Positions 27,212-36,803 of a DNA stretch of 64,000 nucleotides are shown here, piece by piece. The position numbers were made by a program, and so were the translations under genes. Source of the stretch: Pseudomonadota bacterium (GTDB taxonomy: Bacteria; Pseudomonadota; Alphaproteobacteria; Sphingomonadales; Sphingomonadaceae); contig JBCCJD010000003.1 of NCBI GenBank assembly GCA_039027955.1, positions 1,627 to 65,626 of the forward strand, read 5' to 3'. Positions within the stretch are counted from its first letter, which is position 1; each line of letters starts with the position of its first letter. The notes beneath the pieces were generated by a model. It searched no databases. It was not told the DNA's origin and worked only from the letters and a program-made list of their open reading frames with translations.

Positions 27212-27280
27212 GCATGTTTTTTGTGCGGGCTGCTCGGCATTCGCTTAAGCACTTCGTCTTCTTTATGATTGGTGTCTGTC

Positions 27281-28063
27281 ATGACCTCTAGTCCCTTCGC
27301 AGGAGCCTACGCAAAGCTCGCGAGATGTGAAAAGCATATCGCGGAGCTTGTGGAAGCTGAAGCTGCATACAACGCTGATTATCCGTCAGTTGCCGATGTT
27401 ATGCGTCTCCCGAAGGGCGACAATCTTCTCTACGTACAATTTGGCGAAGTTCCAACAGACGGACCAAGCACAATAGTTGCCGACGCAATCGGGAACTTAC
27501 GTTCGGCCCTCGATATCGCCACCGTTCAAGCCTGCGTTTCGCGCGGCCAAACTGACCAAAAGTTGCTAAAGCACACTTACTTTGCAGTGGGTGGTTCCGA
27601 AAATGACTGGTGGGCCAACGCACCCAGAAGAATGGCAGGAGCAGACAAGGTTGTTCAAGAGTGCGTTGCTAGTTTCAAACCATGGCAAACAAGCGGCAAT
27701 ACGCTTCTTTATTCACTCACCAAGATCGCAGCGAGTGATAAGCATGTCGACCTCGTATCCATTTCGGGCAGAGGGGCCAGAATTGAAGATCTTCCGATAA
27801 CTTTCAGCAATTCAGACGGGTCAGATAAATTCATAAGAATTGTTGATGGAATATGGCATCTTGGTGCGCGCAATAAGCACGTCATTTTCGGGATAAAATC
27901 ACCAGGCCAGATCAAGATCGATGGACCAATCGCCATCCGCGCTAATTTTGGGTTCGCTAATGTTTATGGATTGCGAAACACACCAGCGGTCCCAACCCTC
28001 GATGAGATGCTCGTTATGTGCGAGCAAATTGTCAAGACACTTGAAGTCGCTGCCAATAGCTAA
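27281..28063 (+). CDS. Hypothetical accessory protein (AT-richer than flanks)
   Basis: Open frame of ~260 aa with DAIGNLRSALD and LTKIAASDKH motifs; codon usage differs from neighbours. ATG at 27281; the ORF track starts at 27269. Confidence 0.75.
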   Translation: MTSSPFAGAYAKLARCEKHIAELVEAEAAYNADYPSVADVMRLPKGDNLLYVQFGEVPTDGPSTIVADAIGNLRSALDIATVQACVSRGQTDQKLLKHTYFAVGGSENDWWANAPRRMAGADKVVQECVASFKPWQTSGNTLLYSLTKIAASDKHVDLVSISGRGARIEDLPITFSNSDGSDKFIRIVDGIWHLGARNKHVIFGIKSPGQIKIDGPIAIRANFGFANVYGLRNTPAVPTLDEMLVMCEQIVKTLEVAANS

Positions 28064-28237
28064 CGGCGAACTAGAGATAATCGGCCGCTCACGCGCCGTT
28101 TCAGCTGTCATAACTGGTCTGCTCTCTCAAGTACACAATGACAAGCACGCTTTCCAAAATGCAATGCATGCTTTCCTGGCTTCAGCACCATCTGCTTTGG
28201 TAATGACATTGCAACCCTGGATCGCTATGTGACCCAC

Positions 28238-28309
28238 ATGGCAAAGATGCTGACTACGACCACAACCACTACGACCTCGGATATCCGGGGGCGGTCGGTC
28301 ACGCGTTAA
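28238..28309 (+). CDS. Thr-rich leader peptide upstream of thrS ([23 protein letters not shown])
   Basis: Eight consecutive Thr codons ACT ACG ACC ACA ACC ACT ACG ACC at 28253-28276; stop TAA at 28307-28309, 130 nt before thrS. Confidence 0.85.
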
Positions 28310-28345
28310 GCACAAGACCCCGCCACCCGGTTTCGGGTGGCGCGG
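28285..28345 (+). promoter_or_regulatory. Attenuator-like mutually exclusive RNA hairpins
   Basis: CGCCACCCG-GTTT-CGGGTGGCG (28321-28342) competes with pairing of CCGGGGGCGG/GGTC (28285-28300) to GACC/CCGCC-A-CCCGG (28316-28330). Confidence 0.7.
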
Positions 28346-28439
28346 TGTCCTCCTGAAATCGGTAATAGCAACAACACCGCTCTTCCGGTGCGTTCCTGCA
28401 TGTCCTAAAGCGCGCCATACGAGACGGAACGATGATACG

Positions 28440-30386
28440 ATGAACCAACAGATCAAGATCAGCCTGCCGGACGGTTCTGTGCGCGAAATGGAGCCGGGTT
28501 CGACCCCTGCCGATGTCGCGGCTGCAATCGGTCCAGGTCTTGCCAAAGCGGCGCGGATCGCGCGTGTCGATGGCGAGCTGTTTGACCTGACGCGCCCGTT
28601 TGAAGGCGATGCCGAGCTCGAACTGGTGACGGCCAAAGACGAGGAGGTGATGCTCCCGCTGATCCGCCACGATTACGCGCACGTGATGGCCGAGGCGGTC
28701 CAGCGCCTGTTCCCGGGTACCCAGATCACCTTCGGCCCGGCCATCGAGGATGGCTTTTACTACGATTTTGCGCCTCTGCCTTCGCGTGGCCCTTTCACCG
28801 AAGATGACCTTCCCGTGATCGAAGAGGAAATGCGTCGGATCGTTGCCGAAGACAAACCGCTTAAGCGCGAAGTCTGGAGCCGCGAGCAACTGATCAAATG
28901 GTTCAAGAAAAAAGGCGAGACCTTCAAGGCTGAATGGGCGGTCGAGCTGCCCGACGATCAGGAGCTTACGGTCTACTGGGCGGGCGATGATTGGCTTGAT
29001 CTGTGCCGCGGCCCGCATTTCACCTCAACCGGAAAGCTCGATCCTGATGCGTTCAAGCTGACGCGGGTGTCGGGTGCCTATTGGCGCGGCGATCAAAAGA
29101 ACGCCATGCTCAGCCGGATTTACGGGACCGCGTGGCAGAACAAGAAGCAGCTCAAAGCGCATATGATGCGGCTTGAGGAAGCGGCCAAACGCGATCATCG
29201 CAAGCTTGGCCGAGAGCTGGACATTTTCCATTTTGAGGATTTCGCGCCAGGGGCGGTCTTCTGGCACCCCAAGGGCTGGACTATGTTCCAGAACCTGATC
29301 GAATATATGCGCCGCCGCCAGGATTTGGCGGGTTATGTCGAAGTGAATACGCCCGATGTGATGGACCGCACGCTGTGGGAGACGTCGGGCCACTGGTTCA
29401 ACTATCACGAACATATGTTCACCACCCAGACCGAAGATCAGCGGATTTTCGCGCTCAAGCCGATGAACTGCCCGGGCCATGTTTCGCTGTTTGCGCATGG
29501 GCTGAAAAGCTATCGCGACCTGCCGATGCGGATTGCGGAGTTTGGCAAGGTCCACCGATATGAGCCGTCTGGCGCTCTGCACGGGTTAATGCGCGTGCGG
29601 CACTTCACGCAGGACGATGCGCATATCTTCTGCACGCCGGACCAGCTCAAAGACGAAAACCGTGACGTTGTGGAACTGGTGCTCGATATCTACCGCGAGT
29701 TCGGCTTCGAAGATGTGCGGATCAAGCTCTCCACCCGTCCGGAAAACCGCATGGGTTCCGATGAGATCTGGGACACACTCGAAGGCTCGCTGATCGATAC
29801 GCTTGATGCGATGGGGCTCGACTACACGATCAACGAAGGCGAAGGCGCGTTTTACGGACCGAAGCTCGAATTCGTATTGCGCGATGCGATCGGGCGCGAC
29901 TGGCAATGCGGCACACTGCAGGTCGATATGAACCTGCCTGAGGCGTTCGATATCAGCTATGTTGGCGAAGACGGCGAAAAGCACCGTCCCGTCATGCTGC
30001 ACCGCGCGCTGTTCGGATCGCTTGAACGCTTTATCGGCATTCTGATCGAGCATTATGCAGGTCGCCTGCCCGTATGGCTTGCTCCCACGCAGGCTGTGGT
30101 GGCGACGATCGTCTCGGACGCGGATGATTATGCCAGCGACGCTATGGTTAAACTTAAAGCCGCTGGTCTGCGGGTCGACAGCGATCTTCGTAACGAGAAG
30201 ATCAATTACAAAGTGCGCGAACACTCGCTGGCGAAAGTCCCGCATCTGCTGGTGGTCGGCAAACGCGAGGCTGAAGAAGGCACGGTCGCCATGCGCACGC
30301 TTGGCGAGAAAGAGCAGCGCGTAATGCCGCTCGATGAAGCGATTGCGATGCTGACTAAAGCTGCAATGCCGCCTGACCTGGCTTAG
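28440..30386 (+). CDS. thrS: Threonine--tRNA ligase
   Basis: TGS domain, [67 protein letters not shown]. Confidence 0.98.
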
Positions 30387-36617: not shown

Positions 36618-36647
36618 AGGCGGCGGGATTTCCCGCCGCCTTTTTTT
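36618..36647 (+). terminator. Rho-independent terminator
   Basis: AGGCGGCGGG-ATTT-CCCGCCGCCT followed by a T run (36641-36647). Confidence 0.9.
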
Positions 36648-36803
36648 GCGCCCGAGCCGCGTCGGCGGGCTCCCACAATTGCATGAGCTGCGTGTTTCTG
36701 CACATTCGGATCAGCGCATTTTCACTTGAGTGGCCCGCGCCTCCCGTTAGGTTTCGTTGAAGAAGGCGCCAAGGCAATGCACCCGCGGCGCTGGGAGAGA
36801 AAT

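Follow-up and report, generated by a model that had tools for sequence, protein, structure and literature searches.

A threonine-run leader and alternative RNA helices 5' of thrS in the Erythrobacter clade: a probable Thr-tRNA-sensing attenuator

How is the threonyl-tRNA synthetase gene thrS controlled in the Erythrobacter clade of the Alphaproteobacteria? Two textbook solutions to thrS control are established, in which the synthetase (ThrRS) binds its own mRNA (E. coli) or a T-box is used (Bacillus). In the present study, we analysed the leader of thrS in a stretch of 64,000 nucleotides (nt) of contig JBCCJD010000003.1 (assembly GCA_039027955.1; family Sphingomonadaceae), hereafter the window, in which a short open reading frame (ORF) with a run of threonine (Thr) codons precedes the gene and is followed by RNA segments that can pair in more than one way. 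An earlier note on this DNA had read the arrangement as a probable attenuator. The comparison of 87 copies suggested that the element is very probably a ribosome-mediated attenuator, which would sense Thr-tRNA(Thr) and set the expression of thrS.

The threonine-run ORF and its conservation

The ORF, its codon run and the regulated gene are placed as follows.

28238 to 28309, forward strand: leader ORF (thrS leader peptide), present in 87 of 87 copies
28253 to 28276, forward strand: run of eight Thr codons, the proposed sensor, with codon statistics over the 87 copies
28440 to 30386, forward strand: thrS (threonyl-tRNA synthetase), the putative regulated gene, located by a ThrS search

The leader ORF extends from ATG 28238 to TAA 28307-28309. 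It comprises 23 codons, eight of which encode Thr, and its stop lies 130 nt 5' of thrS. Reading of the codons at 28253-28276 (ACT ACG ACC ACA ACC ACT ACG ACC) bore out the statement in the earlier note that the run uses all four synonymous codons.

ThrS searches in 40 relatives yielded thrS loci with 1.5 kb of upstream DNA. It was observed that a Thr-rich ORF lay approximately 185-300 nt 5' of thrS in 20 of 21 same-genus loci, and that such a leader ORF was absent from the nine thrS loci of other families in the order. A covariance model was built from 19 same-genus loci (149 positions, from the last three Thr codons to the last conserved hairpin) and was used to scan the source family, the Sphingomonadaceae, and the order, with 301 genomes in each scan (a sample in the case of the order). 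Matches were obtained in 78 of the 301 family genomes, covering 33 of 112 genera, with exactly one match per genome; in the order-level sample, 63 of 63 matches fell in the source family and none in other families. A Thr-rich ORF was located directly 5' of all 87 collected model matches (33 genera), which counts as support because the model itself holds only the last three Thr codons. The gene thrS came immediately next in 82 of the 87 copies; in the other five (the Citromicrobium type together with one further case), leader and thrS are separated by a small exonuclease-like ORF. In a degenerate pattern scan of the species collection, the Thr frame was present in 96 among the 120 matches listed, including records from Erythrobacter, Qipengyuania, Altererythrobacter, Porphyrobacter, Aurantiacibacter, Citromicrobium, Parasphingopyxis and Pacificimonas; the remaining 24 among those listed were chance matches in high-G+C phyla. 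The recurrence of the ORF together with the hairpins is far beyond chance. A check proposed earlier, the search of relatives for a conserved Thr-run ORF and covarying stems, was thus positive, both in the same-genus loci and in the 87 copies.

The codon statistics were then informative about what is conserved. Across the 87 copies, the leader peptide is 22-26 amino acids (aa) long and contains 4-11 Thr codons (median 7), with a pooled usage of ACC 345, ACT 126, ACG 101 and ACA 33. Within the Thr codons, bases 1 and 2 are fixed and base 3 is variable; column 6, for example, holds C in 62 copies, T in 11, G in 8 and A in 6. This pattern argues for selection on codon identity in the Thr run. Insertions and deletions in the ORF are multiples of three, and the stop codon, at one shared position, is TGA in 45 copies, TAG in 23 and TAA in 19. 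These results suggested that the leader ORF behaves as a coding sensor and is presumably translated.

The region 5' of the ORF contains a further feature.

28203 to 28231, forward strand: promoter-like pair, with a -35-like ATGACA at 28203-28208, a 17-nt spacer and a -10-like TATGTG at 28226-28231

Six bases separate TATGTG from the leader ATG, so that the A of the AUG is the seventh base past the hexamer. A TAnnnN hexamer (mostly GCTATnT) ends 5-8 nt 5' of an in-frame ATG in 86 of 87 copies, and a box of the GTGAC, TTGA or ATGAC type is found at -35 spacing in 84 of those 86; a Shine-Dalgarno (SD)-like tetramer ahead of the leader ATG was seen in only 5 of 86. Since the conserved -35/-10 pair places the start at the AUG, we infer that the leader ORF is leaderless, with a predicted transcription start site at the A of its AUG. 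The two start codons considered earlier, 28238 and 28247, could also be told apart: ATG 28238 is conserved and stands at a fixed 5-8 nt from the -10-like hexamer, and 28247 was dropped. The thrS leader is an unannotated, probably leaderless small ORF (sORF) that has been overlooked by gene callers.

Further 5', at 28137-28176 (60-100 nt 5' of the leader AUG), lies a block of the form AATGACAAG-N5-CTTTCCA-N14-GCTTTCC. Its same-genus form, CTTGTCAT-N14-ATGTCAAG-N5-CTTTCCAAAA-N10-GCTTTCC, is conserved, and the block also occurs in L221, a genome without the Thr leader. The block may be a binding site for a regulator or a further promoter. The TGTCA repeats in the block resemble Pho boxes, and phoD lies upstream; the gene directly 5' of the leader (27269-28063) is an orphan of approximately 264 aa that separates phoD from thrS, and a phoD-like gene abuts thrS in L228.

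Sister attenuators were not detected in the genome, in which the model matched one site and a whole-genome scan for sORFs with amino-acid runs returned no other strong case. The sole other sORF of note in that scan was MQPRSVPQRLALLLLQQR (contig C10:54498, forward strand), 135 nt 5' of a leuD-like ORF, which may be chance.

Two mutually exclusive RNA folds

The strands that take part in the predicted switch, and the elements between them and thrS, are listed below.

28275 to 28280, forward strand: segment 1 (CCUCGG), which pairs with 28285-28290 to give the small 1:2 hairpin
28285 to 28294, forward strand: segment 2 (A), CCGGGGGCGG, within the ORF (codons R-G-R), partner of segment 3
28320 to 28330, forward strand: segment 3 (B), CCGCCACCCGG, which pairs with segment 2 or segment 4
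28327 to 28342, forward strand: segment 4 (C), CCGGUUUCGGGUGGCG, loop and 3' arm of hairpin 3:4, which pairs with segment 3 or segment 5
28343 to 28348, forward strand: S4' (CGGUGU), paired with ACACCG when 3:4 is formed and a hairpin loop when 4:5 is formed
28349 to 28362, forward strand: segment 5 (D), CCUCCUGAAAUCGG, alternative partner of segment 4 and part of a C-rich, G-poor tract
28374 to 28379, forward strand: S5 (ACACCG), the switch strand, partner of S4' or S6
28380 to 28390, forward strand: CUCUUC loop (invariant CUUC core) and S6 (CGGUG, 3' arm of hairpin H6), from alignment and covariation
28387 to 28416, forward strand: hairpin H7 (GGUGCGUU ... AGCGCGCC), kept in nearly all copies
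28424 to 28428, forward strand: ACGGA purine box, conserved, 8-12 nt 5' of the thrS AUG, perhaps a weak SD

Pair counts were taken from an alignment of the 87 copies, and 500 column shuffles together with slid registers served as controls. Two mutually exclusive folds were found: Fold I, consisting of 1:2, 3:4 and GGYGU:ACRCC, and Fold II, consisting of 2:3, 4:5 and CACCG:CGGUG. Both folds scored above each of the 500 shuffles on four of five measures and above every slid register in percentage paired, double-change cells and covariation score.

In Fold I, helix 1:2 was paired in 82.7% of cells, with four of its six pairs varying on both sides and an energy of -11.7 kcal/mol. Hairpin 3:4 occupies 28321-28342 and reads CGCCACCCG-GTTT-CGGGTGGCG followed by CGGTGTCCTCCTG in the DNA, or CGCCACCCG-GUUU-CGGGUGGCG followed by CGGUGUCCUCCUG in the RNA, without a U-tract. 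It was 94% paired, and the pair at alignment columns 80:112 occurs as GC 48, AU 23 and GU 11. The third helix, GGYGU:ACRCC, joins 28343-48 to 28374-79 and was 87% paired, its pair 123:190 being CG in 38 copies and UA in 27.

In Fold II, helix 2:3 (28285-28294 with 28320-28330) was paired in 93% of cells, compared with 43-67% in slid registers, and together with a small stop-codon hairpin reaches -26.2 kcal/mol at the source locus (median -31.0). The constraint on its segment 2 arm is on RNA rather than peptide, since the third positions of the R-G-R codons (CCGGGGGCGG) are fixed like the first two (G in 81-83 of 87 copies). Helix 4:5 joins 28327-28340, the loop and 3' arm of 3:4, to 28349-28362 (CCUCCCGAAAYCGG) and covaries at 99:168 (UA 45, GC 8, GU 5), 101:166 (UA 48, CG 16) and 103:164 (CG 55, GC 12). 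The third helix, CACCG:CGGUG (28375-79 with 28386-90), shows GC 25, AU 19 and GU 11 at pair 190:214. Column 190 therefore covaries with two partners, columns 123 and 214, indicating that the toggle is genuine. The energies of 3:4 and 4:5 are equal at the source locus (-19.0 and -19.0 kcal/mol; medians -17.5 and -18.7), which fits a bistable device; 2:3 is stronger.

The earlier note had described hairpin 3:4 at 28321-28342 and had proposed that its 5' arm can pair instead with the end of the leader. Both pairings were recovered in the 87 copies. The extent of the device needed revision, as it does not end with 3:4 but continues into the 4:5 partner at 28349-28362 and the downstream switch formed by 28343-48, 28374-79 and 28386-90. 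The predicted leaderless start was likewise new relative to the note.

Hairpin H7 was 61% paired in an alignment that is weak at that end; as a speculation, it may act as a pause hairpin. Two other pairings were considered and discarded. The helix CCGCUC:GAGACGG, which appeared in many single-sequence folds, was rejected because several relatives have CAG or CAC in place of GAG and show no compensating change. RNAalifold also proposed that segment 2 pairs over a long range with CCGCUCU; this pairing was set aside because it showed no covariation and its strands are low-complexity, G-rich or C-rich.

Several relatives carry variants of the leader. In L004 (G018), a natural deletion joins the Thr ORF and segment 2 straight to H7, with segments 3 to S6 missing, and this deletion offers a possible natural test of what the middle part does. 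At L062, L070-L072, L075 and L134:2164-2850 (Citromicrobium bathyomarinum), the Thr ORF and segments 1-5 of the leader are followed by a second ORF of approximately 170 aa, MRYYIDTEFNGTGG, and then by thrS; in Pfam, this second ORF matched the Rv2179c-like 3'-5' exoribonuclease family weakly and below threshold (E 0.006). In L221, L222, L224 and L228, which belong to the family and gave no model match, thrS leaders without the Thr ORF keep CUUCCGG and an H7-like hairpin (GCGCG..UGUGCCAU..CGCGC), and L224 has a decayed Thr frame. These leaders are either remnants or cases of the 3' module acting alone. In other genera, a proximal TTGCCC-N17-CATAAG promoter and a short 5' untranslated region (UTR) were found instead.

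From ribosome position to thrS output

The spacing of the ORF and the RNA segments suggested how a ribosome could choose between the folds. A ribosome covers approximately 12-15 nt on either side of its P site. In 83 of 87 copies, the first stop base comes 13 nt past the last base of segment 2, so a terminating ribosome would mask the 3' half of this segment. The distance from the first stop base to segment 3 is 11-17 nt in the 87 copies, and the final Thr codon begins 11 nt ahead of segment 2 in 61 of 87.

Under replete conditions, the ribosome would clear the Thr run, halt at the stop and mask the 3' half of segment 2 while stopping short of segment 3. Segment 3 would then pair with segment 4 (28321-28342), CGGUGU would capture ACACCG, and segment 5 and the CUCUUCC stretch (CUCUUCCGG) would be left unpaired. 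When Thr is short, a ribosome stalled in the run would cover segment 1 (from about the fourth Thr codon) and leave segment 2 free, allowing 2:3 to form. Segment 4 would pair with segment 5, CGGUGU would be trapped in the 8-nt loop of 4:5, ACACCG would pair with CGGUG instead, and both pyrimidine tracts would be hidden. The folds themselves are supported by covariation, and the steps that lead from ribosome position to fold are suggested by the geometry. The earlier proposal that a stalled ribosome frees segment 2 and that one at the stop covers it agrees with the spacing in the 87 copies. Because thrS has to rise on starvation, the unpaired tracts would have to repress.

How these tracts would repress is a separate matter. 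We tentatively favour Rho-dependent termination on the C-rich tract exposed by the switch over a translational output, both of which the earlier note had raised. When Thr is replete, the open tract would serve as a Rho loading site and transcription would stop before or early in thrS; on starvation, the tract would be hidden and RNA polymerase would read on into thrS. The tract from segment 5 to CUCUUCC contains 41% C and 17% G (median C/G 2.3), compared with 37% and 33% in the whole element, and it is hidden in 4:5 and H6 and open in the other fold. In addition, about ten copies tolerate an insertion of 30-110 nt in the interval from H7 to the thrS ribosome-binding site (RBS), which suggests that the decision is taken upstream. 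Taken as a whole, the Thr-tRNA-sensing attenuator was the best explanation of the locus, and we consider it likely.

Several observations weigh against this explanation. The C-rich tract, at only about 40 nt, is short for a rut site, and part of it lies in the loop closed by the 5-6-bp GGYGU:ACRCC helix in the replete fold. Segments 2 and 3 hardly vary among the copies, so that helix 2:3 rests on compatibility and scarcely on covariation (8 double-change cells). The two states would also be less distinct if 4:5 and GGYGU:ACRCC combined into a pseudoknot, which is sterically conceivable, and H7, the invariant CUUC and ACGGA are not accounted for by the scheme. Folding with ribosome footprints, one of the checks proposed earlier, gave noisy results, and the states were not separated by folding alone. 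The mean accessibility of the RBS was 0.46-0.49 in all states, as calculated by minimum free energy and partition function with footprints at the Thr run or the stop, and with 3:4 or 2:3 assumed for the 3' part.

At the site of the tolerated insertions, L021 (G021) carries a perfect palindrome of approximately 110 nt that follows the last conserved hairpin and precedes thrS; where the CAAACGAGACGGA box is usual, this locus has AAAAGGAUG. An extra hairpin of 30-45 nt is found at the same place in about nine others (L005, L020, L033, L038, L043, L045, L047, L056).

The strongest competitor keeps the same sensor and assigns it a translational output, in which the exposed strand would block the RBS as an anti-SD strand and stalling would hide the strand and free the site. 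The strand would be S6 (CUCUUCCGG) in the main type and segment 5 (GCUUCCCG) in the Citromicrobium type. With the same-genus alignment, RNAalifold pairs UCCG (28384-87) with CGGA (28425-28) across H7. In the Citromicrobium type, segment 5 (UUCCCG) complements CGGGAA over 6 bp; this CGGGAA lies 7-12 nt ahead of the AUG of the intervening ORF as its likely SD, and segment 5 folds onto it when 3:4 is formed. A translational output also gives regulation the right sign, would give the GGYGU/ACRCC/CGGUG relay a reason, and has a precedent in leaderless sORFs that lack a terminator (bioRxiv 10.1101/834739). However, the duplex energy of S6 or segment 5 with its own thrS RBS was no better than with the RBSs of other copies (p = 0.18 and 0.51, respectively). 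In the CUUCCGG group the complementary stretch is no longer than 4-5 bp, and about 20 copies with CUUCAAGCG have almost none, although ACGGA is kept in both groups. In about ten copies, additional hairpins of 30-110 nt separate H7 from the RBS. We regard a translational output as rather unlikely, though only slightly less probable than Rho-dependent termination. Other outputs, namely attack by RNases on the open tract, which is richer in A/U, or a stalled ribosome that shields the 5' end, appear improbable.

Classical attenuation would require 3:4 to work as an atypical terminator without a U-tract. The hairpin is strong and G+C-rich (-19 kcal/mol), it is placed like terminators of the trp/thr type, and the sign of regulation would be right. 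The composition of the leaders nevertheless speaks against it. The earlier note had remarked that 3:4 has no U-tract, and the 87 copies confirmed this: the median number of T among the 9 nt that follow the hairpin is 2. The median was likewise 2 after 4:5 and fell to 1 for the two hairpins beyond it; in 51 of 82 copies the longest run of T within the leader was 3, and no U-tract followed any leader hairpin in the 87 copies. The terminators of the genome itself are ordinary hairpins with a T-run, and a canonical one was observed elsewhere in the window, at 36618-36651, where AGGCGGCGGGATTTCCCGCCGCCT followed by TTTTTTT forms a 10-bp stem and T7. Since U-tracts are missing from the leaders of a genome with ordinary terminators, an intrinsic terminator is unlikely here. 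An atypical one would moreover leave the covarying 4:5 and the downstream relay without purpose, and we judge it very unlikely.

We also considered a ThrRS operator of the E. coli thrS kind, with RNA that mimics tRNA(Thr); the Thr ORF would then be incidental or secondary. The sequences of H7 and of its loop (UGUGCCAU or UGYCCUAA) are conserved, and the 3' module (CUUCCGG and H7) persists 5' of thrS in some genomes without the Thr ORF. Inspection of the alignments, however, revealed no anticodon-like loop of 7 nt that carries NGU at a constant position; the loops differ in length (4-6 nt in 3:4 and 10-16 nt in H7) and share no constant GU, Rfam gave no match, and the codon-level signature and the fixed stop spacing would be left unexplained. 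These results indicated that an operator is extremely unlikely. Finally, a Thr-rich peptide with a function of its own, above hairpins that are ordinary 5'-UTR structure, would agree with the conserved length of 22-26 aa and the C-terminal R-G-R but is scarcely credible, as R-G-R is fixed at all codon positions, which points to an RNA constraint, residues outside the Thr run vary freely, and the element always accompanies thrS, either next to it or with one gene between them, in one copy per genome.

With the attenuator as the preferred explanation, thrS of the Erythrobacter clade may represent a third paradigm, in which a leaderless Thr-run ORF drives a five-segment isoenergetic relay and a three-strand toggle that lead to Rho loading on the exposed C-rich tract; this complete chain is proposed with caution. 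If it is true, the element would be the first Rho-dependent attenuator of an aminoacyl-tRNA synthetase gene that responds to amino-acid starvation, and the first such device described in the Alphaproteobacteria. For a large marine and freshwater alphaproteobacterial group, the element adds a third, well-supported solution for thrS, in which the ribosome would gauge Thr-tRNA directly, and the leader provides a clean natural case of an attenuator without an intrinsic terminator. Because the alternative helices are backed by covariation in 87 sequences, specific compensatory mutants can be designed at once. Such mutants could show how devices of high-G+C bacteria signal, whether by Rho, translation or decay.

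Comparison with known systems

Leaderless polycysteine sORF attenuators have been described in mycobacteria, in which a stalled ribosome directly keeps the next RBS from being sequestered in a duplex (Canestrari et al., bioRxiv 10.1101/834739). The present leader resembles these in its single-amino-acid run, its lack of an intrinsic terminator, RNA structure as the output and its predicted leaderless start. It differs in the multi-step helix relay between ORF and gene and in that no covariation with the RBS was found; the mycobacterial cases also belong to another phylum and another amino acid. In Streptomyces lividans, a leaderless thrL before thrS has been predicted, with a hairpin that lacks a uridine-rich tract (PMC8079986), and attenuators of trpS and leuS have been predicted in Streptomyces, likewise actinobacterial (PMC1262725). 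These cases share with our locus a leader peptide 5' of an aminoacyl-tRNA synthetase gene and, with the mycobacterial sORFs, come nearest to it in layout. The S. lividans thrL, however, has only two Thr codons, is given no comparative support, is unrelated in sequence and comes from another phylum. In the literature searched, from which some older in-silico surveys fall outside, we found no description of this element or of a Thr leader before thrS in Alphaproteobacteria.

Among the classical attenuators, the thr operon of E. coli has the leader thrL (Rfam Thr_leader RF00506), and the E. coli pheST attenuator has the pheM leader peptide. As in thrL and pheM, the present leader combines a short ORF carrying a run of cognate codons, exclusive 1:2, 2:3 and 3:4 helices, and a stop placed to mask segment 2. 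As in pheST, the regulated gene encodes an aminoacyl-tRNA synthetase, so that the device would sense its own product. Unlike thrL and pheM, 3:4 has no U-tract, an extra 4:5 alternative and a three-strand relay are present, and the ORF is apparently leaderless, with no SD. The thrL/trpL logic invoked in the earlier note accordingly stood for the codon run, the exclusive helices and the stop geometry, but not for the intrinsic terminator, and the lack of the latter is why the element was not filed as a classical attenuator. A search of 27500-29000 with Rfam 15 (including Thr_leader RF00506 and T-box) at E values up to 10 returned only two unrelated matches at chance level (E 3.5 and 7.6).

Rho-dependent attenuators with leader peptides include mgtL-mgtA and mgtP-mgtCBR of Salmonella and tnaC-tnaAB of E. 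coli. In the mgtL/tnaC type, as in the element proposed here, the position of the ribosome selects between folds that expose or hide a C-rich tract, and no intrinsic terminator is present; the Rho dependence of the present leader is a proposal. It differs from that type in its short tract and in its signal, which would be a run of starvation codons for the cognate synthetase. With the E. coli thrS operator and the Bacillus thrS T-box, finally, the leader shares the same gene and the same aim, Thr-tRNA homeostasis. In contrast to both, it has no anticodon-like loops, and the translating ribosome, rather than ThrRS or uncharged tRNA, would be the sensor.

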